The notes under the pieces: model-generated
Told to the model about the DNA's origin: nothing
The model's input: the letters and a program-made list of their open reading frames with translations, nothing else
Databases searched by the model: none
Part shown: in pieces, positions 186 to 61,666 of the stretch
Numbering within the stretch: the first letter of the stretch is position 1
How the letters are laid out: each line of letters starts with the position of its first letter
NCBI GenBank assembly: GCA_945871105.1
Contig: CAMBUO010000006.1
Coordinates: 7,452 to 71,451 of the forward strand
Length of the DNA: 64,000 nucleotides
Source: an uncultured Clostridia bacterium
GTDB lineage: Bacteria > Bacillota_I > Bacilli_A > RF39 > UBA660
Reading direction: 5' to 3'
Made by a program: the position numbers and the translations under genes

Positions 186-1223
186 TCATTTTAAAAATTT
201 AGTTAAATCTTTTATAGCGTTACTTGATGTATAATCATTTGCCTTCAATAAAATATTCTTTTTTAAACTTATAACTTTTTCTGTATTTAAGCATTCCATT
301 AGTTTTTTTTGAAATTGTTTTGTATCATACATATCTACTAAATAACCAGTTTCATGATCTTTTATAATATCAACTGCATTTTCCCATTTAGTAGCAATTA
401 CTGGAACTCCAGAAAATAATGCATCAATTATAGTTCCGGGAATTCCTTCTGTTTTAAATCTGGTAGGAAATAGCAATAAATAGTAATACTTTAAAATATC
501 TACAGATTTATCAGAATCAACACATCCTTTATATTGAACGTAATCCGGAAATTTTTCCTGCATTGTCTTGAATTTTTCTTCATATAAAGAATCGATCGGT
601 CCATATATATCTAATGTATAAACTATTTTATTTAATTTATTATTTATATTTTCAACTATTTTAATAGCATCTTCTATTCCTTTTTCTGGCATAACCCGTG
701 AAAAAGTACATAAAGGATATGGTTCCACAAAATCGTAGATTAAATTCTCATCATCAAGTGGTTTTATAATTTTAAAATTAACTAATATTTCTACATTAGA
801 AAAAGAATTTTTTTCTAATTCCATTTTCATTTTCTTTGTTTCAACAAAAATTTTATCAAATAATCGTAATTTTTTTGTTAAGTTTAGCTTATCTTTTATA
901 TATTCCGGTAGCCAACCACCTACTACTGCATAGTATAAATTAAATTTATATCTTTTTTTTAAATAAGAAAAAAGCGGTACAAATATTTTTATTCCATTAT
1001 GAGCTGGTAAAATAATAATATTTTTACTATCTTTTGCCGATTTTAAACATTTTCTTAATAATTTAAGAGGATTTTTTTTCCAATTATAAGTATCAATTAT
1101 ATTAATATTATTTTCAGCATATTCATTAATCAATGCTTTATATAAATTTTTTGTTTTTACTGTTTGACCATCTAAAAAGTTATTATTACCTCCAAAATGA
1201 CCACATATAGTTACTTTATACAT
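186..1223 (-). CDS. glycosyltransferase family 1 (GT4)
   Basis: C-terminal EGIPGTIIDALFSGVPVIAT is a GT1 E-x7-E-type motif. I prefer the ATG at 1223, which has AGGAG 6 nt upstream and gives MYKVTICGHFGG. The track start at 1265 would overlap the upstream gene. Confidence 0.8.
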   Translation of the reverse strand: MYKVTICGHFGGNNNFLDGQTVKTKNLYKALINEYAENNINIIDTYNWKKNPLKLLRKCLKSAKDSKNIIILPAHNGIKIFVPLFSYLKKRYKFNLYYAVVGGWLPEYIKDKLNLTKKLRLFDKIFVETKKMKMELEKNSFSNVEILVNFKIIKPLDDENLIYDFVEPYPLCTFSRVMPEKGIEDAIKIVENINNKLNKIVYTLDIYGPIDSLYEEKFKTMQEKFPDYVQYKGCVDSDKSVDILKYYYLLLFPTRFKTEGIPGTIIDALFSGVPVIATKWENAVDIIKDHETGYLVDMYDTKQFQKKLMECLNTEKVISLKKNILLKANDYTSSNAIKDLTKFLK

Positions 1224-1231
1224 TTCTACTC

Positions 1232-1975
1232 CTATTTTATATGAAATACTTTTATTATCCCCCAAACACCTATATGAAAAACTGATCTGATAACTGATAA
1301 ATGTTCAATTTCTCTATATAATTGCCAATGATATTTAATTAAATCTAATTTATTGCTAGAAACAGAATTTTTTCTTAAACGATACTGCATTAATACTTCC
1401 TTTTGACCATAGATATATTCTTCTTTTTTTAACATTTGAAGCCATAAAGCATCATCATTTCTTTTTCTAATATTTGGTACTTTAAACTTTCCTAGTTTAG
1501 AAACATCATAGAAAACAGTTGAATTTCCAACAGGACAACTTAATAAAATTCCATTATAATTTACTTTCTTTTTACAAGAAATAGTTCTATTTAACTTATT
1601 ACCTTTTTCATCAATCTGTTCATAATCAGAACATATTATTTTATATTTATTTCTCTTTATAAATTTTATTTGTTTTTCTATTTTATCACTAACCCAAATA
1701 TCATCACTGTCAAGAAAAGCCATATACTTTCCTTTAGCAAGTTCCATAGCTGTATTTCTAGCAACGGCTGGTCCGCTATTTGTTTTTAACTTTATATATT
1801 TAATTCTTTTATCATGATAACTATTAACAACCTCTTCTGTATTATCTGTTGAAGCATCATCAACTATTATCATTTCAAAATTCTTATAAGTTTGATTTAA
1901 AACAGATTCTATAGTTTTATCAATATATTTAGAACAATTATAAGTTGGGGTAATAATTGACACTAAATCTTTCAT
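1232..1975 (-). CDS. glycosyltransferase family 2
   Basis: IITPTYNCSKYIDKTIESVLNQTYKNFEMIIVDDASTDNT followed by FLDSDDIW (DxD) gives a classic GT-A/GT2 N-terminus. Confidence 0.85.
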   Translation of the reverse strand: MKDLVSIITPTYNCSKYIDKTIESVLNQTYKNFEMIIVDDASTDNTEEVVNSYHDKRIKYIKLKTNSGPAVARNTAMELAKGKYMAFLDSDDIWVSDKIEKQIKFIKRNKYKIICSDYEQIDEKGNKLNRTISCKKKVNYNGILLSCPVGNSTVFYDVSKLGKFKVPNIRKRNDDALWLQMLKKEEYIYGQKEVLMQYRLRKNSVSSNKLDLIKYHWQLYREIEHLSVIRSVFHIGVWGIIKVFHIK

Positions 1976-1976
1976 T

Positions 1977-2669
1977 TTATCTTCCTACTTTCAAAACTGT
2001 ATTCATACATAACTTTAAATCCAAAAGAATATTAAAGTTTTTTAAATATTCTAAATTGTATTTCATTTTTTCAGGTAATATTCTTTTAAGATATATATCA
2101 TCTATATTTTCTTTTTTGGAATATTTACTTATTATTTCATCTTCATCTTTGTATTCAATGCTTGCTTTTGAGGTAACACCAGCTGGTAATAAAAGAGTTG
2201 CTAACATTTCTTCATTATAAAAATCAACATATTTTTTAACTTCTGGTCTCGTTCCAACAAATGACATATCTCCAAGTAATATATTAATTAATTGAGGTAA
2301 TTCATCTAATCTTATTTTACGAATTTTTTTACCTATTTTGGTTATTCTTGAATCATTATCAAGAGTTACTAAACTTCCCTTTTTATCAGCATCAACAACC
2401 ATAGTTCGAAATTTAAATATTTTAAATTCCCTACCATATTTTGTAATTCTTATTTGTCTATAAAAAATTGGTCCTTTAGAATCAATTTTTATAATTATAC
2501 TAATAATTAATAATATAGGAAATAACATTATTAAAAGAATTAAAGACATGAATATATCAAATAATCTTTTTAATAATAACTGTAATCTTTTTTTACTTAA
2601 AATATCATAGTAATACTTTACTTTTTTATTTTTCATAAAATCAGGTAATTTATCATATTTAATTAGCAT
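1977..2669 (-). CDS. polyprenyl-phosphate sugar-phosphate transferase (small PglC/EpsL-type bacterial sugar transferase)
   Basis: One N-terminal hydrophobic hairpin followed by KGPIFYRQIRITKYGREFKIFKFRTM and RLDELPQLINILLGDMSFVGTRP. These are the hallmark motifs of the bacterial sugar transferase family. Confidence 0.85.
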   Translation of the reverse strand: MLIKYDKLPDFMKNKKVKYYYDILSKKRLQLLLKRLFDIFMSLILLIMLFPILLIISIIIKIDSKGPIFYRQIRITKYGREFKIFKFRTMVVDADKKGSLVTLDNDSRITKIGKKIRKIRLDELPQLINILLGDMSFVGTRPEVKKYVDFYNEEMLATLLLPAGVTSKASIEYKDEDEIISKYSKKENIDDIYLKRILPEKMKYNLEYLKNFNILLDLKLCMNTVLKVGR

Positions 2670-2671
2670 AA

Positions 2672-3886
2672 TTAAAATTCCTTTAATACTTCAATAAAGT
2701 TTTTTATTATATAATCTACTTCTTCCATAGTTAATTTACTATATAGAGGTAAAGTTATTTCATTTTCATATTGTTTATAACTATTTGGATAATCTTTAAT
2801 ATTAAAACCTAAATCTTTATATGCTGTTAATAAGGGTAATGGTTTATAATGAACATTAGTAGTAATTCCTCGTTTGGCCATTTCCATGATTATTTCATTT
2901 CTTGTAGTTTCATTTATATTATTAATTCTTACTAAATATAAATGTCCTGATGATTGATGATTATTATCTAAATGATTTAATACTTTTATTGGTAAATCTT
3001 TAAATGCTTCGTTATATTTTTTAATTATTTTATGTCTTTTAGCAATTAATTGAGAATATCTTTTTAACTGAGCAAGTCCAATTGATGCCATAATATCAGT
3101 CATATTACATTTATATAAAGGTGCTACTATATCATATTCCCAGTTACCTAAACCTTCTTTATGTAAGGCATCTTTGGTTTGACCATGTAAAGATAATAAT
3201 TGAAATTGTTTGTAAAGATAATCATTATCTAAACCAGGAATACTTTTCCAAGTTACTGCTCCTCCTTCACCAGTTGTTAAATTTTTAACAGCATGAAAAG
3301 AAAAGGTTGTAAAATCGGCTATATTACCAGCCATTTTATTATTTTTAGATGCACCTAATCCATGAGCAGAATCAGCTAAAACCAAAACTCGATTATATAA
3401 TTTTTGAATATCATTTTTAGGTTTAAACTTGCTCTTATTTTTCTCAACTATTTCATATATTTTATCATAATTAGCAATGATTCCGGCTATATCAACAGCA
3501 ATAATAGCTTTAGTATTTTCCGTAATTTTTTCTTCTAATTTAGTATAATCCATCTCATAACTATCACTAGCAACATCTACTAAAACAATTTTAGCACCTA
3601 CATGATAAATTGGACTAGCCGATGCGGTATAAGTATATGATGGAACAATTACCTCATCACCTTCTCCAATACCTAAAACTCTTAAAGTTAACTCTAAAGC
3701 GGCTGTTGCTGAATTTAAACAAACGACTTTTTCCGTTTGACAAAGTTTGGCTAATTCTTTTTCAAATAACTTAGTTTTAGGTCCTGTTGTAATCCAACCA
3801 GATTTTAAAGTATCTACTACTTCTTTTATCTCTTCATCACTTATATCAGGTGGTGAAAAAGGAATATTCATTAAAGTTTTATTCAT
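2672..3886 (-). CDS. DegT/DnrJ/EryC1/StrS-family PLP-dependent sugar aminotransferase (PglE/EpsN-like)
   Basis: Contains GWITTGPKTKLFEKELA, SATAALELTLRVLGIGEGDEVIVPSYTYTASA and SFHAVKNLTTGEGG, which carries the PLP lysine. Confidence 0.85.
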   Translation of the reverse strand: MNKTLMNIPFSPPDISDEEIKEVVDTLKSGWITTGPKTKLFEKELAKLCQTEKVVCLNSATAALELTLRVLGIGEGDEVIVPSYTYTASASPIYHVGAKIVLVDVASDSYEMDYTKLEEKITENTKAIIAVDIAGIIANYDKIYEIVEKNKSKFKPKNDIQKLYNRVLVLADSAHGLGASKNNKMAGNIADFTTFSFHAVKNLTTGEGGAVTWKSIPGLDNDYLYKQFQLLSLHGQTKDALHKEGLGNWEYDIVAPLYKCNMTDIMASIGLAQLKRYSQLIAKRHKIIKKYNEAFKDLPIKVLNHLDNNHQSSGHLYLVRINNINETTRNEIIMEMAKRGITTNVHYKPLPLLTAYKDLGFNIKDYPNSYKQYENEITLPLYSKLTMEEVDYIIKNFIEVLKEF

Positions 3887-5762
3887 TTTCTTTTTTCTCC
3901 TTATTTTGATTATTAACTTCTTCCGAATCTTTGTAAGTTGAAACTACACTTTTCATAACTTCAACTACTTTTTTATTACTATATTTATCGTTATACTCAA
4001 GTTTTCTTAGTTTTCTCAATCCTTCTTCTAAACCTTTTTCCGAAAAATCAAAGGGTTTAGATATAAAGATTTTATTATGTTTAGTAGCTGTTAATCCTTC
4101 TTCAGACATTAAAATTTCTTCGTATAATTTTTCTCCTGGTCTTAGACCGGTTATTTCAATTTGAATATCTCTATTTGGTTCATATCCCATTAACTTAATT
4201 AAACTAACAGCTAAATCATATATTTTAACTGGTTTTCCCATATCTAAAACAAATATTTCTCCAACTTCAGCATAAGTCATAGCTTGAAGTATTAAAGATA
4301 CAGCTTCCGGAATGGTCATAAAAAATCTTGTTATTTCTTTATCAGTAACCGTAACTGGTCCACCTTTAGCAATTTGTTTTTTAAATAAAGGAATAACTGA
4401 GCCATTGCTACCTAAGACATTTCCAAAACGAACAGCTACAAAATCAGTTTTACTTTTTTTATCTTTTGTTTGCACAATCATTTCACAAACTCTTTTAGAA
4501 GCTCCCATAATATTAGTAGGATTTACGGCTTTATCAGTTGAAATTAAAACAAATTTAGAAACCCCATATTCATCAGAACAATTTACAACATTTAAAGTTC
4601 CAAAAATATTATTTTTTATAGCTTCAAGAGGGCTTCTTTCCATTAAAGGCACGTGTTTATGGGCAGCAGCATGAAAAACTAAATTAGGATGAAATTTAGA
4701 AAATAAATTATTTAAACAAGCTTTATCCCGAACACTACCTACAATAGCTTCAATATTCATTTTCGGATAATCACTTATAAGTTCCATTTGAATGTCATAT
4801 AAATTATTTTCATAGATATCAAAAATAATTAATTTTTTAGGACTATAACGAGCAATTTGGCGACATAACTCCGATCCAATTGATCCTCCACCACCCGTTA
4901 CTAAAACAACTTTATTTTTAATTATATTTTTAATATCTTTATTTTCTAATTGAATTGGTTCACGACCAAGTAAATCTTCAATTTCAACATCTCTTAAACT
5001 ATTTAAAGCTCCTTGCTTATTAATGACTGATTCCGTAGTTGGTAAAACTCTTGTTTTAACATTAGTTTCTTGACAGATATTTAAAATTTCTTTTCGATCA
5101 ACAGGTGTTACATGATTAATAGCAAAGAAAATTAAATCAACATCATTTTCTCTAACTACTCTTGGAATATCATATCTAGTTCCTAAAACTTTAATACCTA
5201 ATATCTTATGATTAATTTTACTTCTATCATCATCTATTAAACCAACTATATTATATTTATCTTGCATGTTATTTAAAATAGCAATAATAATCTCTCTAGC
5301 CCCCATACCAGCTCCAATTATTAATAGATTATTAGGAGCTTTATGTTTAAAAGTTGGCAAAATTTTATGCTTGTTAAAAAATGATCTTAAAAACAAACGA
5401 TATACAATCAACATTCCCGCTATAAATATACCTGCTAAAACATTAATCTTAAAAGAAATATAGCTTAATTGAAAAATTATTCCTAAAATAGAAATGGCAA
5501 CAATCGAGAATACTGCTACAAAAATATATTTAATATAATCTTTTCCTACTTCATATTCTAACAGATTTTGATATAAACCAAATATATTTAAAAACATTTG
5601 ATAAAATAATATATGAATTCCAATTCCTTTTAATAAGTACGTAACACTTATATCAGCTGTTGTATTTAAAAAAACAATAGCTACTATATAACCTAAAATA
5701 ATAATTAAAATATCTAATATCAAAGTTAATAAACTACGATATTTTTTTACTACATTTTTCAT
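3879..5762 (-). CDS. membrane-anchored nucleotide-sugar 4,6-dehydratase, CapD/PglF/EpsC family
   Basis: Four N-terminal TM segments, then two Rossmann folds (LLIIGAGMGAREI and VLVTGGGGSIGSELCRQI) and a CapD-type SDR core (ISTDKAVNPTNIMGASKR). Confidence 0.85.
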   Translation of the reverse strand: MKNVVKKYRSLLTLILDILIIILGYIVAIVFLNTTADISVTYLLKGIGIHILFYQMFLNIFGLYQNLLEYEVGKDYIKYIFVAVFSIVAISILGIIFQLSYISFKINVLAGIFIAGMLIVYRLFLRSFFNKHKILPTFKHKAPNNLLIIGAGMGAREIIIAILNNMQDKYNIVGLIDDDRSKINHKILGIKVLGTRYDIPRVVRENDVDLIFFAINHVTPVDRKEILNICQETNVKTRVLPTTESVINKQGALNSLRDVEIEDLLGREPIQLENKDIKNIIKNKVVLVTGGGGSIGSELCRQIARYSPKKLIIFDIYENNLYDIQMELISDYPKMNIEAIVGSVRDKACLNNLFSKFHPNLVFHAAAHKHVPLMERSPLEAIKNNIFGTLNVVNCSDEYGVSKFVLISTDKAVNPTNIMGASKRVCEMIVQTKDKKSKTDFVAVRFGNVLGSNGSVIPLFKKQIAKGGPVTVTDKEITRFFMTIPEAVSLILQAMTYAEVGEIFVLDMGKPVKIYDLAVSLIKLMGYEPNRDIQIEITGLRPGEKLYEEILMSEEGLTATKHNKIFISKPFDFSEKGLEEGLRKLRKLEYNDKYSNKKVVEVMKSVVSTYKDSEEVNNQNKEKKENE

Positions 5763-5871
5763 TTATAATTCTACTCCTTGCTAATTATCTTTACTCACTA
5801 AAAGTATAGCATTTTTTTTAATAATCGTCTATTAAAAAAGCATTTTATTTACATAATAATAAATTTTCTTG

Positions 5872-5894
5872 ACAAAAAAACAGCCAAAGCTGTT
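5872..5894 (-). terminator. Rho-independent terminator after the LCP gene
   Basis: Minus strand reads AACAGC-tttg-GCTGTT followed by TTTTTTTG, directly after the stop codon at 5894-5896. Confidence 0.6.
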
Positions 5895-7612
5895 TAATTA
5901 TCATTTTCTTCTTGATTATTTATTTCAATGTTATTATCAGATATTTCTTTATTTTCATTTTCTTCATTTGGTACATCTGATGTATCTTTAGTTTCTTCTT
6001 GTTTGGATTCTTCTTTAGGTTTTTCTGAAATAATTTCATTTACTTCATTTACATTAGTAGCCTCATCTACATCTAAATAAGAATTATCTAACAGCTTACC
6101 ATTCTTAACGGATTTTAAAGCATCTTTAACATTTAAAATCGTTTCTTCTTTTGGAATCATAACATATAGTTTTTGATAAGGATAACTATAAGTATATTCA
6201 CTTCCATCACTTCCATTTAAACTCATTGAAGTTATATTCCAACTTGGCATTTTATCAAGTTGCATTTTTATTAAATCCGTTATCTTATCTGTAGAAATAT
6301 TAGTAGCAAAAGTTCCTTTCAACGATTCTAAAATATCACTATATTTAGTTAAAATAGCACCAGAACAAGCTTTTTTAATAATTGCTTGAATCATGGCTTG
6401 TTGATTTTCTCCTCTTACCCTATCACCATCTTGGAAAGCTTCTCTAGTTCTTACAAAATATAAAGCTTTTTCTCCATTTACGTGATTTAAACCTTTTTTA
6501 TAATAATAATTCTTATCAGTACCAACACTTGTAAATGAATATTTCGAATAAACATCAACACCACCTAAGGCATCAACTAATTTAACTAAAGCTCCATAGT
6601 TAACTTTAAAATAATAATTTATTTCAATATCTAATAAATCTTCAATTGATTTAACACTCATTTCGGTTCCATAAATACCAGCATGTGTTAATTTATCTTT
6701 TTGACCTATTTCATGTAAAGTAACATAATAATCTCTTGGTATGTTAATCATTAATATTTGATGAGTTTTGGGATTAATACTAACTAAAATATTAACATCA
6801 CTTCTCGTTAAACTATTAACATCACCATAAGAATCAATTCCTGAAATATATATATTAAAAGTTTCCTTTAAGACATTAACATCTTTTTTAAAACTCTCTA
6901 ATTTTTCTTTTAAAGCAAATTTATAAATAATTTTTACTTTACTTTCTAATTCTTCATCACTTTCCGTTAAACTATCAAAATGAGAATCAGGAATAACTAC
7001 CCCTTGAATCTTTTTATTCATTAAATCTTCAAATAAAACACTATAATCTTTATATTCTTTAAATTCTAAATCAATTACTTCATCTAATTTTTTATTAGCA
7101 TCTAAAATACTACTATTTAATTGATTAACATAACCAACACTTTCAGTAGTTAAATCTTTAATATCATTAAATTCACTAGATTTTAAAGTAACAACATAAA
7201 AGTTTTTAATTTGATAAGTATTATTACTTGTAAAATCATCTAAAAAATTAAAAGTATGATTTAAATAATAGAAAGCAAAACCAAGTATTACTATATAAAT
7301 AATCTCGATAATTGATAAAAATACTTTTAAAGCATAACCTTTTTTCTTTTTAATAATTAAAAATATTATTAAAAATGGTATTATAACAACTAATAATAAA
7401 TATATAATTAAATATTTTAATGGTAAAACATCGTATTTAATAATTAAATAAGTATTTAATATTATCATTAAAACCATAATTATAGAAATAATAAATAAAT
7501 AGATATTTAATTTTTTTATTTTTTTCTTTTTATTCTTTTTCATATTATTTTTGTTGATATCCTTTTTAATATCAACTTCATCATCTATATCTTCAATAAG
7601 GATATCATCCAT
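5894..7612 (-). CDS. LytR-CpsA-Psr (LCP) family cell-wall glycopolymer ligase
   Basis: N-terminal cytoplasmic Lys-rich tail and a TM region, then the LCP core (NILVSINPKTHQILMINIPRDYYV, LTHAGIYG, ALYFVRTRE). The C-terminal tail is acidic and low-complexity. Confidence 0.85.
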   Translation of the reverse strand: MDDILIEDIDDEVDIKKDINKNNMKKNKKKKIKKLNIYLFIISIIMVLMIILNTYLIIKYDVLPLKYLIIYLLLVVIIPFLIIFLIIKKKKGYALKVFLSIIEIIYIVILGFAFYYLNHTFNFLDDFTSNNTYQIKNFYVVTLKSSEFNDIKDLTTESVGYVNQLNSSILDANKKLDEVIDLEFKEYKDYSVLFEDLMNKKIQGVVIPDSHFDSLTESDEELESKVKIIYKFALKEKLESFKKDVNVLKETFNIYISGIDSYGDVNSLTRSDVNILVSINPKTHQILMINIPRDYYVTLHEIGQKDKLTHAGIYGTEMSVKSIEDLLDIEINYYFKVNYGALVKLVDALGGVDVYSKYSFTSVGTDKNYYYKKGLNHVNGEKALYFVRTREAFQDGDRVRGENQQAMIQAIIKKACSGAILTKYSDILESLKGTFATNISTDKITDLIKMQLDKMPSWNITSMSLNGSDGSEYTYSYPYQKLYVMIPKEETILNVKDALKSVKNGKLLDNSYLDVDEATNVNEVNEIISEKPKEESKQEETKDTSDVPNEENENKEISDNNIEINNQEENDN

Positions 7613-7663
7613 TTTTTCACCTACTTCTCTTTAATTATATATTATTTACTTTGTTTTTACAAC

Positions 7664-9463
7664 CTAAAAATAATTAGAACTAAAATATTTATCGTTTTCT
7701 AATTCTTTACCCCATTTCTTTTTCATATAATCTTGTTCTTTTTGAAATCTGTCCATTTGTTCCTTGGTAACTTCATAGCCACGTGATTTAGATTCATAAT
7801 GTAACAAACTAATATTATTTAAACAAACATTATAATAACCTTTCTTTAACATTTTTAAATTAAAATCAACATCATTTAAAGCAACTTTTAAATTTTCATC
7901 AAAGCCATCTACTTCTAAATATTTACTTTTTTTAACTAATAGACAAGCAGCTGTTACAGCCGAATAATCATAAGGCATTGATAAACGATTAAAGATACCT
8001 ATATCTTTATTAGAAGCTGTTACAAATACATGTCCCGCTACTCCCCCATAACCAAGTACAACCCCAGCATGTTGAACTTTTAAATCTTTATATAAAAGTT
8101 TTAAACCAACACAACCAACATGATCCCTTGATGCATATCCTACCATGTAATCTAAAAAGTCTTTATCTAATACTTCAGTATCATTATTAAGAAGTAGTAT
8201 ATAATCACCTGTTGTTTCTTTAATAGCTAGATTATTTAATCTCGAATAATTAAATTCTTCTTTAATAGTTAATATTTTAACATTATCATGTTCTTTTTTT
8301 AAATTAGTAAAATAAGCAAAAGTTTCTTCTTCCGTACTATTATTATCAACAATTATTATTTCAAAGTTTTGATAAGTATTTTTCTTATATAAAGAATCAA
8401 TACAAACTTTTGTTAAATTGACTTTATCTTTCATAGGAATAATAATACTTACTTTCGGATTATCATGTTTATATTTAACTAAATACGTACTACTCGTTGG
8501 ATTATCTAATACTTCTCCTTTAATATTTCTTCTTTTTAAAGTATCTTCTAAAGCTCTTTTACCAGCTAAATAAGCATAGGATTTATTACCTAAAGCTAAA
8601 CTAGTTGAATTTGGAGTTTCCCTCCAATGATATAAAATTCTTGGAACATGATAAATTTTTTTGGTTTTATCTAATATTCTTAAAAATAAATCATAGTCTT
8701 GGGACCCATCATATTCCTTTCGAAATCCTCCTACTTCTCTTACTAAACTTGTTCTTAAACAACTAAGATGACAAATATAGTTCATACCCATCAAAGTATC
8801 AGGTGAATAATCGGGTTTAAAATGTGGTTCAAAATATTTACCATGAATATCCATTTTATCTTCATCAGTATAAATAAAATCTAAAGTTTTATCTTTATTT
8901 AAAGCTTCAACTAAATAATAAAAAGCATTTTGATCTAATTTATCATCATTATCAACTAAAACCAAAAATTCTCCTTTAGCTAATTTTATACCATCATTAC
9001 TAGCAACTGATATCATACCATTAGTTTTTCGATATTTAATTTTAATTTTTGAATTATTTTCATATTCTTTTAAAGTATTCAAAGTTTCTATATTACTAGA
9101 ATTATCATCAATTAAAATAATTTCAAAATTAAGATAACTTTGTTTTAAAATACTTTCTAAACATTCAACTAAATATTCTCTTTTAACATTATAAACAGGA
9201 ATAATAACTGATAATAAAGGATTATAAGAAAACTTTTTAATTTCAATATGATTATTATTTTTTTCTAACCATTCTTGATAACATTTTTGATTATCAATTA
9301 GATTAGAACTAGTTCCTCCTCGTCTTAATATTTTAATAAATGATTTAATATATTTTTTCATCGCACTTGGAGGTATTAAAAAATGATGACGATGCCAAGC
9401 AAAATAAAGAGATTTTTTAATTAAATAAATTAATTTAGCAAATTTAGCTTTAATTTTTTTCAT
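7664..9463 (-). CDS. two-domain family 2 glycosyltransferase (rhamnan-type polymerising GT)
   Basis: Two GT2 modules: SVIIPVYNVKREYLVECLESILKQSYLNFEIILIDDNSS with VDNDD, and SIIIPMKDKVNLTKVCIDSLYKKNTYQNFEIIIVDNNST with LLNNDTEV. Confidence 0.8.
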   Translation of the reverse strand: MKKIKAKFAKLIYLIKKSLYFAWHRHHFLIPPSAMKKYIKSFIKILRRGGTSSNLIDNQKCYQEWLEKNNNHIEIKKFSYNPLLSVIIPVYNVKREYLVECLESILKQSYLNFEIILIDDNSSNIETLNTLKEYENNSKIKIKYRKTNGMISVASNDGIKLAKGEFLVLVDNDDKLDQNAFYYLVEALNKDKTLDFIYTDEDKMDIHGKYFEPHFKPDYSPDTLMGMNYICHLSCLRTSLVREVGGFRKEYDGSQDYDLFLRILDKTKKIYHVPRILYHWRETPNSTSLALGNKSYAYLAGKRALEDTLKRRNIKGEVLDNPTSSTYLVKYKHDNPKVSIIIPMKDKVNLTKVCIDSLYKKNTYQNFEIIIVDNNSTEEETFAYFTNLKKEHDNVKILTIKEEFNYSRLNNLAIKETTGDYILLLNNDTEVLDKDFLDYMVGYASRDHVGCVGLKLLYKDLKVQHAGVVLGYGGVAGHVFVTASNKDIGIFNRLSMPYDYSAVTAACLLVKKSKYLEVDGFDENLKVALNDVDFNLKMLKKGYYNVCLNNISLLHYESKSRGYEVTKEQMDRFQKEQDYMKKKWGKELENDKYFSSNYF

Positions 9464-10604: not shown

Positions 10605-10800
10605 ACCGTTATCGAAAACTTATAAAACTATAAAAAGTTTATGTTTCGTTCTTGTTTCTACCAATCCAATTTTGAATACTATATATTCTACTTTTGTTTA
10701 TATAATTGTCCGCAAGCGTTAATTCCCGTCTAACTAACGGTACATATATAAAGTTGCTTTATAGTGCTAATACTTTATATGTTTCACAATCTTTCAAATT
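10605..10800 (-). ncRNA. candidate TnpB guide RNA (omega-RNA/reRNA) scaffold at the right end of the IS
   Basis: In TnpB elements the guide RNA overlaps the tnpB 3' end and runs to the right-end boundary (established knowledge). This 158-nt tail is locally more GC-rich and structured: hairpin CCGTtagttagACGG, and ACCGTTA near 10735 complementary to TAACGGT near 10608. Exact ends are unknown. Confidence 0.3.
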
Positions 10801-54425: not shown

Positions 54426-55922
54426 CTACTTATCCATATTTTGAATAGCTTTAATACAACTATTAACATCATTAGCTCCAATAACATCAGCTATAAAAAT
54501 TAAAATAGTTGGTGTTAAATAAATTAAAACAGCTGCAATTGCTCTTTTACCAAATCTTTTCCAAGCATTTTTTATTCCATCTTTATCATCATTAAATACT
54601 ACTTTGGAAAAATCAATAGTTGTTAAAACTAATAAAATAATAGGAACAGCAATATAAATGATTTTAAATACATTTTTCTTTAAAAAGTTCATAAAGCCAC
54701 CTTCACCACCACCAAATAATTGTTCACAAGTAGCTTCGATTTCATTTAATGGTAAATTAACTAATGAATTTTTTTTACTAGATAGAATATACACGTTATA
54801 ACTTTTTGAGTCTTTAGGAACACTTGTAGCAAATAAATAATTCTTCGTGTTTTGCTCTTGAATAATATATAAAGGATATTGAGCAGTATCATGGCTTGCA
54901 AAATTTGAAGAATAATTAGAAGCATTAGAAATCGTAATAGCACCAACACTACCATTAAAACTTATCTTAAACCTTTCGGAAGCAACATCTGAATTGATGT
55001 ATGATACTTTGATAGTTGAACTACTACTTCCATTTATCAAAGTATATCCTACTCCATCGTCATCATCAACAGTACTACAATTACCATCCGTTATAATTCC
55101 CTCTTTTTTTTCATCTGCAGCTCCATAATAATCATAGCAATTTTTTATAGAAGCATATCCTTGGCAACTGACACTTCTTCCAGAAAGTCTATTATTTTCG
55201 TCTGTTATTGACGTTGGACAAACCGTTTTTTCCCAATTCATCAATTTTCTACCATCGTTAAAAAGATTTTCATATATATTAATTTGCTTATAAAATTTTA
55301 ATTCTAGTATTTTACCACAATTATTTTTATAATAACAGTATTGATATTTATTAGTAGATTGTTGAGGTGTTTCTACCTGACTCGAATGAGAACTATTCTG
55401 ATTCAAAGTAAATGTTTTGGTAGAAAAATCAGTTTTTTTCAAAAAAGTGCCATTATCACTTAAAATATCCAATTGTAATTCTGTCTGGGTTAAACCATTT
55501 TTTTCATCAATTTTTAATCCATTTTCTGAAAAGAAAACAATTGCTAAAGGAACGTTATCTACATAATTATGCCTTATATATTTTTCTAAAAGAGCATTTG
55601 ATGAAATAGCAATATATAATTGTTTAGGACAAGCAAGTGCACAATATTTTCCATCAGCATAACAAGTTCCAGGAACCGATTCATATTCTTCTTTATACTT
55701 AACAATAGAATTAGCTGGATATGTTTTTTTAATCTGCGAATTATACTTAATTGAATATTCAAATTGATTTTCACTAACTATTGTTGGATTATATGTCATG
55801 TATAAATTTACTTCTTCAGAACCATTTTTATAATTACATGTAAATTCTAAAGCTTTAACATTATAAACATTAAAAATAAGCATCGTAGATATTAATAAAA
55901 CAAAATATATATTTTTTCTCAT
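54426..55922 (-). CDS. hypothetical secreted Cys-rich protein with a C-terminal double-TM anchor
   Basis: Signal peptide MRKNIYFVLLISTMLIFNVYNVKA. About 19 Cys residues are scattered in the mature part. The C-terminus has two hydrophobic helices (IIYIAVPIILLVLTTI and AIAAVLIYLTPTILIFIADVI) separated by a basic loop. It overlaps the upstream gene by 4 nt. Confidence 0.6.
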   Translation of the reverse strand: MRKNIYFVLLISTMLIFNVYNVKALEFTCNYKNGSEEVNLYMTYNPTIVSENQFEYSIKYNSQIKKTYPANSIVKYKEEYESVPGTCYADGKYCALACPKQLYIAISSNALLEKYIRHNYVDNVPLAIVFFSENGLKIDEKNGLTQTELQLDILSDNGTFLKKTDFSTKTFTLNQNSSHSSQVETPQQSTNKYQYCYYKNNCGKILELKFYKQINIYENLFNDGRKLMNWEKTVCPTSITDENNRLSGRSVSCQGYASIKNCYDYYGAADEKKEGIITDGNCSTVDDDDGVGYTLINGSSSSTIKVSYINSDVASERFKISFNGSVGAITISNASNYSSNFASHDTAQYPLYIIQEQNTKNYLFATSVPKDSKSYNVYILSSKKNSLVNLPLNEIEATCEQLFGGGEGGFMNFLKKNVFKIIYIAVPIILLVLTTIDFSKVVFNDDKDGIKNAWKRFGKRAIAAVLIYLTPTILIFIADVIGANDVNSCIKAIQNMDK

Positions 55923-60085: not shown

Positions 60086-60114
60086 ATTATACTATCAGAA
60101 AGAAAAAATAACAA
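60086..60114 (-). promoter_or_regulatory. promoter of ftsK
   Basis: Minus strand TTGTTA (60114-60109), 17 nt, TATAAT (60091-60086). Confidence 0.5.
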
Positions 60115-60117
60115 GAA

Positions 60118-60537
60118 TTATCTTGTCATTTTCTTATTAAATTTTGAATCAATATAAGCATCAGCCATCTCTGAAGTTATTTGAATAAAATCCGGATCCC
60201 CATCATATAAAATATCAGCTAACCAAGTAGTTTTAGTAGCATTTTTCCACATATTATTTTCTTCATCATAAATTTGTAAATAAACATCATTAAAGATACG
60301 AATCAAAATCATAGGGTTTCGTTTTTTACAAAAATAAAATTTATAATTATCATTTTTAATTTTTTCAAATTGACTAGCACTAATTTCTCTCATTTCATCA
60401 CTTAAATTTAATTTAAGTAGATCACATTTTTTAAAACTACCGTCATAATCAAAATACTCAACACATTGCGGATTATCATTAATACGAATAATTGTCTTTT
60501 CATTTGAATTTTTTCTACTACAAATAAAATATTGCAT
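60118..60537 (-). CDS. hypothetical 139-aa protein with internal duplication; candidate cognate antitoxin/immunity protein
   Basis: Starts 1 nt after the upstream stop. There are two similar halves: YFICSRKN..TIIRINDN..VEYFDYDGSFKK and YFCKKRN..ILIRIFND..LQIYDEENNMWK. I recognise no family. Confidence 0.45.
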   Translation of the reverse strand: MQYFICSRKNSNEKTIIRINDNPQCVEYFDYDGSFKKCDLLKLNLSDEMREISASQFEKIKNDNYKFYFCKKRNPMILIRIFNDVYLQIYDEENNMWKNATKTTWLADILYDGDPDFIQITSEMADAYIDSKFNKKMTR

Positions 60538-60538
60538 G

Positions 60539-61288
60539 CTACCTCCTCTTTACATTAGATACAAATTGATATTCTATAGCACCTACTGGAGCCTTAACAC
60601 TTGATTGTAATATTTTTCTTAATTTATTAGCCAAAAATTTTAATCTAGAATCAGCATCTTCATCACGAATAACACGATATAATTTTCTCGTACATTCCTC
60701 TTTTACATGATGTCCATACGGAGTATGAAACTGAATCTCAAAAAAATTTCCTTCTTTATGCTTTAATTTTACATTAATACCTTGACATACAGGAGTTCCC
60801 CAATTATTTTTAACTTCAATATCATAATAACCCATTTCTTCTAGCATATGCAGAAAATTATCAACACTTTCTATATATTTATCATCTTCATAAATAACCG
60901 TGTATCGAACAGCATCTCGTATATTTTTGGAAGCTAGGAGATAGTCTCCTTCATATGCATCACTATCATCAATTATTTTTCTCTTAATACTGCTTTTTTC
61001 TTTTAAAACATGAGATGGGTTTACTAAACCTGTTTCCAGATCAACATTACCTAAAAGATTACCTGAAGTAACATTAGCTAACATTCTTATATCATTAGTA
61101 ATACCAGGTTCAATTCTTTTAGAATAACTATAAAGATCGTCAGCACATTTTTCTAACAATATTTCTAGTTCTGTTTTAGGTTCAAGAGTTTCTTTCTGTC
61201 TATCTGTTTCATCTAAATATTGAATGTACTCATCAACCCACATTCTAGTATCATTCCATTCTTCAATTGTCATAACATCGTTATTCAA
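60539..61288 (-). CDS. RelA/SpoT-homologue single-domain nucleotide pyrophosphokinase, toxSAS-like (candidate toxin)
   Basis: Synthetase-domain motifs appear in order: HVLKEKSSIKRKI, IRDAVRYTVIYEDD, CQGINVKL and FFEIQFHT. Compare RelQ, as I recall it: RVKxxxSIxEK, DIAGLRI..F.DD, YRSYH and VEIQIRT. I prefer the TTG start at 61288, 8 nt after AAGGTGG; the alternative is ATG at 61273. Confidence 0.6.
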   Translation of the reverse strand: MNNDVMTIEEWNDTRMWVDEYIQYLDETDRQKETLEPKTELEILLEKCADDLYSYSKRIEPGITNDIRMLANVTSGNLLGNVDLETGLVNPSHVLKEKSSIKRKIIDDSDAYEGDYLLASKNIRDAVRYTVIYEDDKYIESVDNFLHMLEEMGYYDIEVKNNWGTPVCQGINVKLKHKEGNFFEIQFHTPYGHHVKEECTRKLYRVIRDEDADSRLKFLANKLRKILQSSVKAPVGAIEYQFVSNVKRR

Positions 61289-61301: not shown

Positions 61302-61329
61302 TTGACATATCTAATTATTATGATATAGT
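61302..61329 (+). promoter_or_regulatory. promoter of the DUF192 gene
   Basis: TTGACA (61302-61307), 16 nt, TGaTATAGT (61321-61329). Confidence 0.55.
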
Positions 61330-61348
61330 AAAGACAATGAAAAGTCAA
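61320..61348 (-). promoter_or_regulatory. promoter of the toxSAS-like operon, overlapping the divergent DUF192 promoter
   Basis: Minus strand TTGACT (61348-61343), 17 nt, TATCAT (61325-61320). Its -10 shares bases 61324-61325 with, and directly abuts, the + strand -10. Confidence 0.45.
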
Positions 61349-61357
61349 GGTGATAAG

Positions 61358-61666
61358 ATGAAACTAATTTTCGATAAAGAAATTAATTTGAAAGAAGCTA
61401 ACACATTAAAAAAAAGATTACTAGGTTTAATGTTTAAAACTAATATTCAAGAAGGATTAGTTTTTAAAACTAAAGCTATTCATACTTTCTTTATGAAAGA
61501 AAATATTGATGTTATTATAACAGATAAAAATAATAAAACAATAGCTTTCTATAAAAATTTAAAAAGAAATAAAATAATTATTAATTTAAAAAGTTATTAT
61601 ATCTATGAATTACCAAATAATTCAATTAATAATTTAAAAAAAGGAGATAAGTTAACTATTCAGTAA
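61358..61666 (+). CDS. DUF192-family protein
   Basis: AAGGTGA SD, then ATG at 61358. LLGLMFKT...GLVFKTKAIHTFFMKENIDVIITDKNNKTI resembles the DUF192/COG1430 core. The track start at 61220 is an antisense extension into the neighbouring gene. Confidence 0.6.
   Translation: MKLIFDKEINLKEANTLKKRLLGLMFKTNIQEGLVFKTKAIHTFFMKENIDVIITDKNNKTIAFYKNLKRNKIIINLKSYYIYELPNNSINNLKKGDKLTIQ

Follow-up and report, generated by a model that had tools for sequence, protein, structure and literature searches.

In a 64,000-nucleotide (nt) window of contig CAMBUO010000006.1 from an uncultured Clostridia bacterium (the window being the whole stretch of DNA that was analysed), two adjacent genes on the minus strand encode a 249-amino-acid (aa) protein of the RelA/SpoT homologue (RSH) type and a 139-aa partner (Table 1); all coordinates are those of the window. 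A sequence-only reading had described the first gene as an open reading frame (ORF) of about 250 aa with four ordered synthetase motifs, and we found all four of them: HVLKEKSSIKRKI (aa 93-105), IRDAVRYTVIYEDD (aa 123-136), CQGINVKL (aa 168-175) and FFEIQFHT (aa 182-189). The same reading had the next ORF starting 1 nt past the stop codon with no terminator in between; the gap from the toxin stop codon to the partner ATG is exactly 1 nt, and no terminator-like site was found between the two genes. The neighbours that it had named were also confirmed, with nrdD, nrdG and DUF192 on one side of the pair and ftsK on the other; the ftsK side further includes a 175-aa ORF and a DnaB_2/DnaD-like gene.

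The RSH enzyme, its partner and their operon signals

The Pfam RelA_SpoT profile (PF04607), which the sequence-only reading had proposed as a check on the 249-aa protein, gave no significant match (E 0.08, 13.7 bits vs a gathering cutoff of 27), an outcome that, taken literally, this reading had named as a refutation. The homologue P0018 barely passes this cutoff (27.5 bits), and a PADLOC search of the 249-aa protein returned no match. The fold was instead established by profile comparison with SaEAS of Streptomyces albidoflavus (PDB 8vx3), its closest solved structure and best profile match, and by structure prediction. A phmmer search against PDB sequences matched 8vx3 (listed as 'SaSAS') at 2e-7, and a profile built from 36 homologues matched SaEAS at 1e-33 and Tas1 at 0.0085. 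The AlphaFold2 model, computed from the family alignment, had a predicted local distance difference test score (pLDDT) of 91.4 and a predicted TM-score (pTM) of 0.85, and it showed the RSH synthetase fold. Through Foldseek searches with this model, we found SaEAS at 4e-12 (TM 0.80) and Tas1 at 5e-7, then RelP, RelQ and Rel, whereas FaRel2 (8pu3; 7.5e-4) and CapRel (7ztb; 1.2e-3) stood far behind SaEAS. All 40 of the PDB matches at E<=1e-3 were RSH synthetases (SaEAS, Tas1, RelP, RelQ, Rel, SpoT and FaRel2). We consider the synthetase (SYNTH) fold of the modelled protein to be secure despite the failed PF04607 match. In NCBIfam, the protein matched the C-terminal region of the XopAD/skwp type III effectors (2e-20), a region reported to carry Rel-like domains (PMC12691689).

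The catalytic residues are intact. Six active-site residues of the enzyme, D125, R128, K160, N172, E184 and Q186, are identical to D121, R124, K154, N169, E182 and Q184 of SaEAS (numbering of the latter from PMC12691689). Across the 36 homologues, D125, R128, E184 and Q186 are invariant, K160 is kept in at least 90%, and some distant homologues from phages have another residue in place of N172. In the family alignment, the neighbouring residues Y129 and T130 of the syn2 motif and F187, H188 and T189 of the syn4 motif are invariant as well, and A126, V127 and I185 vary. The published signature of adenosine 3'-pyrophosphokinases is RYT in syn2, GxN in syn3 and YH in syn4 (PMC12226406). The 249-aa protein has this Apk-type signature in DAVRYT, QGIN and EIQFHT; the Y of syn4 is F here, which is also the case in SaEAS. 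SaEAS was reported to make both (p)ppApp and (p)ppGpp, and other exported (EAS) members only (p)ppGpp (PMC12691689). Because SaEAS shares the signature yet makes both alarmones, the product specificity is not readable from these motifs.

Pfam searches found no hydrolase, TGS, ACT, secretion, MuF, PAAR, LXG or other delivery domain in the 249-aa protein, and its N-terminus is acidic, without a hydrophobic stretch or a signal peptide; the sequence-only reading had likewise seen no hydrolase, TGS, ACT or secretion domain. Since the protein has no N-terminal delivery or export module, it corresponds only to the toxin domain of Apk2, Apk1 and EAS and is not one of these proteins sensu stricto. Ahead of the first motif lies a lineage-specific insertion of about 10 residues, which is modelled as a beta-hairpin (AlphaFold2 strands E80-82 and E89-91). 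Homology supports the reading of the 249-aa protein as a putative toxin that consists of a SYNTH domain standing alone and belongs to the toxic Apk/EAS branch. The sequence-only reading had grouped it with toxic RSH enzymes in general. That grouping stands for the Apk/EAS branch, to which SaEAS, Tas1 and Apk2 belong, whereas the FaRel2/CapRel/PhRel branch is less likely (Foldseek about 1e-3 vs 4e-12). Its statement that FaRel2 came from Coprobacillus is correct (PMC10565793).

The 139-aa partner received no assignment from Pfam, NCBIfam, PADLOC or phmmer against PDB sequences. The phmmer and profile searches against PDB sequences gave matches at chance level only (GST-omega and GINS Sld5), and tblastn against 50,697 phage genomes gave no match. 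Only profile methods linked the partner to the immunity protein IapK, the assignment coming from a PHROG scan in which aa 65-131 matched phrog_3514 (2e-9). An 85-aa orthologue aligned to the same C-terminal domain (BLASTP 2e-5). The partner, which had been described as not assignable to a known antitoxin family, can thus be placed in the IapK family and therefore does not represent a new one. The family is tiny, with 10 clusters in the first search and 49 representative clusters among 1.84 billion proteins in an exhaustive profile search, and its usual form is a single domain of about 60-90 aa.

The similarity of the two halves that had been described in the partner is weak in direct comparison: BLASTP of one half against the other produced no alignment, and hhalign gave a weak match (E 0.03). 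A profile of the N-terminal half, however, matched the profile of single-domain IapK-family members at E 8.9e-5 over 46 columns, and the AlphaFold2 model of the partner (pLDDT 79.7) showed two strand-rich units in succession, each with a terminal helix. Tandem relatives with two clearly significant copies were also found, namely L026 (2e-14 and 2e-10), P0099, P0107 and P0117. Judged from profiles and the predicted structure, the two halves are a real but strongly diverged duplication. Tandem duplication of the IapK-like domain arose more than once (L026 at 6680-7201; P0099, P0107 and P0117), and the RSH partners of these other tandem forms are without the hairpin insertion of the window lineage.

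Foldseek searches of the partner model against PDB and BFVD found nothing significant (best PDB E 0.19). The best fold matches were SH3/Tudor-like barrels and small unnamed phage proteins, and a Tad2-like match (E 0.41) was not credited. Tis1 (6ox6 chain B) was not among the top 50 Foldseek matches, and the PDB profile searches with the partner did not recover it either, which is weak negative evidence because the partner model is of only moderate confidence. The label 'Tis1-like', used in the literature for some Apk2 immunity proteins, could not be confirmed here. The comparison with known toxSAS antitoxins that the sequence-only reading had suggested recovered neither of the antitoxin chains of 8pu3 (ATfaRel2) and 7ztb (CapRel pZFD) by fold, and Pfam and PADLOC gave no match to a pZFD, DUF4065/PanA or HD hydrolase domain. 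From its sequence, the partner is a tandem immunity or antitoxin protein of the IapK family, and it is predicted to inhibit the enzyme. Neither the toxin nor the partner has a Pfam or PADLOC assignment at present, so that both families would be a gain in annotation.

The signals around the two genes are compact. The toxin start is TTG at 61288, preceded by the ribosome-binding site (RBS) AAGGTGG at 61303-61297, and an alternative in-frame ATG at 61273 is the equivalent of the start used in the homologue P0013. The Shine-Dalgarno sequence of the partner lies within the last four codons of the RSH gene, which indicates translational coupling. The KRR tail of the RSH protein is conserved in the family because the partner RBS sits in those codons, and we rejected the tail as a functional peptide. 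The operon promoter and the promoter of the divergent DUF192 gene stand back to back; these promoter calls are pattern matches only, and this AT-rich region shows no enrichment of such sites relative to shuffled sequence. At the other end, a terminator-like element (dG -13.5 kcal/mol, z -5.0) overlaps the final codons of the partner (..KMTR*) together with the stop codon, and the 3' arm of this element serves as the -35 box of the ftsK promoter (TTGTTA-17-TATAAT, 60114-60086). Relatives keep the element as a DNA sequence, also where it falls outside the coding region, as in L006 and L009. The conserved ..KKMTR tail of the partner was likewise rejected as a functional peptide, because the terminator hairpin and the -35 box constrain the nucleic acid. 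A compact overlap of terminator and promoter was also seen in L006, L009, L012, L021 and L026.

Table 1. Coordinates of the gene pair, its protein motifs and domains, and its expression signals in the 64,000-nt window.
Feature	Position	Strand	Basis or detail
Putative toxin gene, 249 aa	61288..60539	-	stop codon 60541-60539
N-terminal helical hairpin of the enzyme, aa 8-73	61070..61267	-	AlphaFold2 secondary structure
Lineage-specific insertion of ~10 residues within GNLLGNVDLETGLVNPS (aa 76-92)	61013..61063	-	alignment of 18 RSH sequences
syn2 motif DAVRYT (catalytic Asp D125; R128)	60899..60916	-	aligned to SaEAS D121/R124
syn3 motif QGIN (GxN signature)	60773..60784	-	N172 aligned to SaEAS N169
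syn4 motif EIQFHT	60722..60739	-	E184, Q186 aligned to SaEAS E182, Q184
Last four RSH codons (VKRR), containing the partner Shine-Dalgarno AAGAGGAGG	60542..60553	-	
Partner gene, 139 aa	60537..60118	-	ATG at 60537
Partner N-terminal domain, aa 1-64, diverged second IapK-like unit	60346..60537	-	profile comparison, AlphaFold2
Partner C-terminal domain, aa 65-139, canonical IapK-family domain	60121..60345	-	phrog_3514, BLASTP, domain hidden Markov model (HMM)
Sigma-70-like operon promoter, TTGACT-17-TATCAT	61320..61348	-	consensus scan
Divergent DUF192 gene promoter, TTGACA-16-TATAGT	61302-61329	+	consensus scan
Terminator-like element (A-tract / 14-bp hairpin / U-tract)	60103..60134	-	RNA fold

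Homology to the phage Apk2 toxin and its immunity protein

The relationship of both genes to a phage system was found through PHROG and phage genome searches. Residues 8-232 of the enzyme matched phrog_7625, a head-morphogenesis MuF-RSH family (8e-16), and tblastn against the 50,697 phage genomes gave 45 records. Among the matches listed (25 of the 45), every one lay on a gene for a head-morphogenesis, minor-head, head or hypothetical protein in Streptococcus, Haemophilus and Aggregatibacter phages, and the record counts add Pasteurella and Mannheimia phages and one Ralstonia phage. The identity to the toxin domain of MuF-Apk2 from Streptococcus, Mannheimia, Pasteurella and Aggregatibacter phages was 29-30% over 83% of the query, and BLASTP against Apk2 of the pneumococcal phage IPP60 gave 30% identity (E 1e-15). 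The Streptococcus, Mannheimia and Pasteurella matches represent the Apk2 family, whose toxin domain was shown to be a toxic (p)ppApp synthetase (PMC12226406, PMC10083569).

The partner follows the same relationship. In IPP60, the 69-aa ORF IPP60_00041 begins 2 nt past the MuF-Apk2 gene and precedes an HD phosphohydrolase gene. It matched phrog_3514 at 2.8e-37, as did the equivalent ORF43 of Aaphi23 at 2.3e-25, and an HMM built from the partner family matched IPP60_00041 with 45.3 bits. The published gene order is apk2-iapK-aph1 (SPNA45_00317 to 00319; PMC12226406). We took IPP60_00041 as IapK because its gene order matches that of SPNA45_00317-00319, and not from sequence identity to SPNA45. 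IapK was reported to neutralise the toxin by occluding its acceptor site and to protect mainly against its own cognate toxin (PMC12226406). The third gene of the phage system was not found, as tblastn of the phage Aph1 hydrolase against the 64-kb window gave no match.

The more distant phage-borne RSH homologues P0034-P0038 (32-35% identity) have at their N-terminus a 25-aa motif, HHGIxGQKWGxRNGPPYPL (Pfam DUF7211). L008 encodes two different proteins that bear it (4255-4920 and 7162-7695), both between the terminase large subunit gene and the portal gene. The DUF7211 motif is possibly a capsid-targeting or packaging tag with a MuF-like role for these distant phage RSH proteins.

Conserved location and diverged alleles

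The strict enzyme family is rare, with 39 clusters among 5.8 billion proteins. At every locus recovered from the window lineage, which comprises uncultured gut Bacilli or 'Erysipelotrichaceae' metagenome-assembled genomes (MAGs) from humans, rabbits and ruminants, the order was DUF192 (divergent), RSH gene, IapK-like gene and ftsK. This order holds in more than 12 lineages at the ftsK locus, with FtsK identities from 98% down to 79%. The presence or absence check in relatives proposed by the sequence-only reading found no relative without the pair in JGI metagenome contigs scanned with FtsK, and an exact look-up of the DUF192 protein gave only the DUF192/pair/ftsK arrangement. The sequence-only reading had called the pair an insert between nrdDG/DUF192 and ftsK. 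This description does not hold, since the pair was at the same position in all related genomes that were recovered and its GC content (25-29%) is indistinguishable from that of the flanks; a horizontal-transfer anomaly in composition was rejected on the same ground. The adjoining ftsK encodes a DNA translocase that has one ATPase domain besides the alpha and gamma domains, and a tie between the pair and an EssC-like secretion ATPase was therefore rejected. The DUF192 (PF02643) gene lies at 61358-61666 (+), sharing a promoter region of about 70 bp with the RSH gene, and it adjoins the RSH gene in all ftsK-linked relatives, even in those without nrdDG upstream (L012-L014).

Away from ftsK, the pair was found in two further settings. 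In the more distant Bacilli lineage L027, it lies between gpsA and htpG. DUF192 is missing from this version, so that a functional link between DUF192 and the pair is unproven. In L031, a goat-caecum Bacilli MAG, a 2256-aa polyvalent protein (314-7084) contains an internal RSH domain (aa ~1657-1878) that matched phrog_7625 at aa 1685-1855. Downstream are a 75-aa ORF (7140-7367) and a 397-aa ADP-ribosylglycohydrolase (7382-8575) fused to a C-terminal IapK-like domain (E 5e-5), an arrangement that looks like a composite immunity protein for a multi-toxin polypeptide. Every RSH protein of the clade examined, including those of L027 and L031, has a downstream IapK-like ORF, and the pair behaves as a two-gene module. 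IapK-like domains were also found fused to other modules in P0111, P0100, P0109, P0112, P0121, P0122 and P0128, among them a GNAT acetyltransferase in P0111 (Acetyltransf_10, 5e-32) and several uncharacterised regions of 100-330 aa on the N- or C-terminal side. These observations suggest that the IapK-like domain is a small unit reused across conflict systems.

Within the conserved location, the pair is hypervariable. Between the window and L002, the flanking DNA is 96-100% identical and the two genes are 77-90% identical, with sharp edges of the drop at about 61400 and 60106 and a sliding minimum at 61300-61100. A third allele, in L099, has 69% protein identity within flanks that are 92-98% identical; taken together, the three alleles show 69-78% protein identity within flanks of 92-99% DNA identity. 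The synonymous divergence (dS) of the pair is 0.42-0.47 vs 0.06-0.15 in the flanks (3-4 times higher), and the ratio of non-synonymous to synonymous divergence (dN/dS) is about 0.28 vs 0.05-0.11 in the neighbours, with an overall range of 0.27-0.66. Because its synonymous divergence is high, the alleles of the pair are older than the genomic background and not merely fast-evolving. They are old alleles, arisen through recombinational replacement or kept by long-term balancing selection, and they are still under purifying selection.

The two proteins diverge together. In three lineages, the identities of enzyme and partner were 78/76, 51/40 and 46/15%. Among close alleles, aa 21-60 of the N-terminal hairpin are the most variable part (70-75% of sites vs 25-40% elsewhere). 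From 18 RSH sequences and the lengths of their partners, we found the insertion of about 10 residues in the toxin to be restricted to the subclade in which the partner carries the additional, diverged domain at its N-terminus. The correlated divergence, the variable hairpin and the co-occurrence of insertion and extra domain fit a co-evolving protein-protein interface, which we infer from these sequence patterns.

A second hypervariable gene lies in the window at 54426-55922 (-). Its product is Cys-rich and 498 aa long, with a hydrophobic N-terminus and a further hydrophobic segment at the C-terminal end, and Pfam gave no match for it. In the comparison with contig L001, which is otherwise 98.6% identical, the alignment is confined to the C-terminal 200 aa (62% identity), and the N-terminal 295 aa could not be aligned. 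The gene probably codes for a variable protein that is secreted or located at the surface.

Interpretation of the pair and its relation to known systems

From the observed homologies, intact catalytic residues, operon anatomy, conserved location and allelic hypervariability, we interpret the locus as, rather probably, a self-contained two-gene toxin-immunity module of phage (MuF-Apk2/IapK) derivation, similar to type II toxin-antitoxin (TA) modules and without MuF or Aph1. The enzyme product, the toxicity, the direct binding of the partner and the biological trigger are read from this relationship as follows. The enzyme would be an active 3'-pyrophosphokinase of the Apk/EAS branch that transfers pyrophosphate from ATP to the 3'-OH of a purine nucleotide. 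The likeliest acceptor would be ATP or ADP, leading to (p)ppApp and ATP depletion, and GTP or GDP might also be used. The partner would be made from the same mRNA by translational coupling, and this tandem IapK-type inhibitor may bind the enzyme directly and block its acceptor site, so that the producing cell stays viable. Without a domain for export or delivery, the enzyme most probably has its effect within the cell that makes it. If the inhibitor were lost or displaced, for example during phage infection, the toxin would act there in abortive infection or addiction. We speculate that the alleles diversified in an arms race, for example with phage-encoded IapK homologues.

Several points weigh against this interpretation. 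The enzyme stays below the RelA_SpoT threshold and is missed by PADLOC, and the motifs cannot fix its product. The partner model is of moderate confidence with no significant structural neighbour, and neither Tis1 nor ATfaRel2 was recovered with it. In addition, no pair-less relative was present among those recovered, and TA modules are not usually fixed at one core-genome locus across species with dN/dS <1, a pattern that would fit a domesticated role too. A variant that takes up this last point has the phage pair captured as a core-genome locus throughout the lineage, with ancient incompatible alleles under balancing or diversifying selection, as a polymorphic (p)ppApp system and not a mobile TA module; we hold this to be doubtful. 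If it were true, the duplicated IapK domain and the variable hairpin could form a sensor or decoy interface against phage IapK mimics or Apk2 toxins, or, alternatively, the pair could be the principal, inhibitor-gated alarmone switch of the lineage.

The fixed position is also what a domesticated housekeeping enzyme would show, that is, a non-lethal source of (p)ppGpp or (p)ppApp in gut Bacilli of reduced genome, with the IapK-like protein as its physiological regulator. The pair sits in the same DUF192/pair/ftsK position in every relative found, over FtsK identities of 79-98%, it is under overall purifying selection (dN/dS 0.27-0.66), its composition matches the flanks, no other RSH gene was seen among the ten largest ORFs scanned in the 64-kb window, and some enzymes of the branch make (p)ppGpp (PMC12691689). 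However, a 3-4 times higher dS and a protein divergence of 22-31% within flanks of 92-99% identity are not normal for housekeeping enzymes. The closest characterised relatives examined are all toxic in the cytoplasm (Apk2, SaEAS without its signal peptide, and Tas1), and the characterised homologue of the partner is an immunity protein, so that we regard a housekeeping role as unlikely. Decay points in the opposite direction: phages carry the nearest wider relatives (L008, L011 and the MuF-Apk2 phages) and the MuF and Aph1 components are missing, as they might be in a prophage remnant without current function. Such a remnant is extremely improbable, because both ORFs are intact in all lineages and alleles examined, the residues D125, R128, E184 and Q186 do not vary across the family, dN/dS is <1, and conservation extends to the promoter, the coupled RBS and the terminator.

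Two other readings keep the enzyme toxic and change its target or its route. As a toxSAS of the FaRel2, CapRel or PhRel type, it would pyrophosphorylate tRNA-CCA ends; the toxSYNTH fold is held in common (FaRel2 at 7.5e-4 and CapRel at 1.2e-3 by Foldseek), the two-gene TA architecture agrees, and the sequence-only reading had proposed this grouping. We consider it highly unlikely, as nucleotide-acceptor enzymes are far closer (SaEAS at 4e-12 and Tas1 at 5e-7 by fold, SaEAS at 1e-33 by profile), the enzyme is directly homologous to the toxin domain of Apk2 (Apk2tox), and the partner is of the IapK family, which the literature links to acceptor-site occlusion of (pp)pApp synthetases. Moreover, toxins of the tRNA type are neutralised by pZFD/PAD1 domains with a YXXY motif (PMC11782079), and no YXXY motif is conserved in the partner family alignment. 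An antibacterial effector with its immunity protein, of polymorphic-toxin or EAS-like type and exported or delivered by an unrecognised route, is quite unlikely as well: the enzyme has no signal peptide or recognisable delivery domain, with residues 8-232 taken up by the part of phrog_7625 homologous to Apk2tox, and the neighbouring FtsK, with its single ATPase and alpha/gamma domains, is not of the EssC type. This reading draws on the export of SaEAS, the closest solved relative, on relatives fused to MuF, XopAD, LXG or PAAR delivery domains (PMC12691689), on the RSH domain inside the 2256-aa polyvalent protein of L031, and on the hypervariable, co-diversifying toxin and immunity alleles, which are typical of loci of interbacterial antagonism.

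To our knowledge, (p)ppApp synthetase toxins have until now been characterised from secretion systems, from MuF proteins of prophages and from a small number of TA modules in cultured bacteria. Compared with Apk2/IapK/Aph1 (MuF toxins of the SPNA45 prophage of S. pneumoniae, M. haemolytica, P. multocida and B. caccae; PMC12226406, PMC10083569), the window pair has a homologous toxin domain with the RYT, GxN and [FY]H syn motifs, and its next downstream gene is likewise a phrog_3514 member, with toxin and immunity genes tightly juxtaposed. The cognate-specific immunity of IapK also fits the co-diversifying alleles found here. In contrast to the phage system, the window pair has neither a MuF domain nor the (p)ppApp hydrolase Aph1. 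It stands at a fixed core-chromosome position by ftsK throughout the lineage and not in a prophage, its toxin has the extra beta-hairpin insertion, and its immunity protein consists of two tandem copies, the N-terminal one strongly diverged.

The other relatives differ in delivery or in the neutralising protein. SaEAS (PMC12691689), an exported protein with a Sec signal peptide, comes without an immunity gene, whereas the window protein lacks a signal peptide and always occurs with its partner. Tas1 (Apk1)/Tis1, a type VI effector-immunity pair of P. aeruginosa (PDB 6ox6), shares the SYNTH subfamily fold and, by analogy, may share the combination of a (p)ppApp synthetase with a small protein occluding its active site. 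Unlike the window enzyme, Tas1 carries a PAAR delivery domain, and no similarity between the partner and Tis1 was detectable in sequence or fold searches. The toxSAS TA modules (FaRel-ATfaRel/AT2faRel, FaRel2-ATfaRel2, PhRel and CapRel; PMC7229694, PMC11782079) are likewise stand-alone SYNTH proteins with an adjacent neutralising gene and no delivery domain, and by analogy the window pair probably has an antiphage or addiction role too. They belong to different SYNTH subfamilies (Foldseek about 1e-3), however, and are patchily distributed, whereas the window pair is syntenically fixed. Their known antitoxins are small alarmone (SAH) hydrolases or consist of pZFD, Tis1-like or PanA domains, and we detected none of these types here.

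The family of each component and the logic of a toxSAS with its neutraliser are already known. The new points are an Apk2tox/IapK cassette without MuF and Aph1, fixed at a core-genome locus in a whole uncultured lineage, its deeply diverged alleles at that locus, and a tandem IapK with a matching toxin insertion. The locus shows such a cassette living without a phage carrier or hydrolase in AT-rich uncultured gut Bacilli. The natural allele pairs (window, L002, L099, L015 and L004) could be used to map the specificity of IapK-type neutralisation, and they let one ask whether phage-borne IapK disarms host toxins.

The rest of the window resembles an ordinary chromosomal segment. No prophage signature was seen near the pair in the window, which carries the core genes gyrB, gyrA, addAB-like, mutL, pheST, thrS, ftsK and nrdDG. 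Of its ORFs of at least 150 aa, 43 of 45 are on the minus strand, and the plus-strand GC skew is uniformly negative, which is consistent with one replichore of a low-GC Bacillota chromosome. Upstream of a cell-envelope gene cluster with glycosyltransferase and LytR-CpsA-Psr genes, a RAGATH-18 RNA motif was found at 10649-10716 (-) (Rfam RF03064; 63 bits, which exceeds the gathering score).

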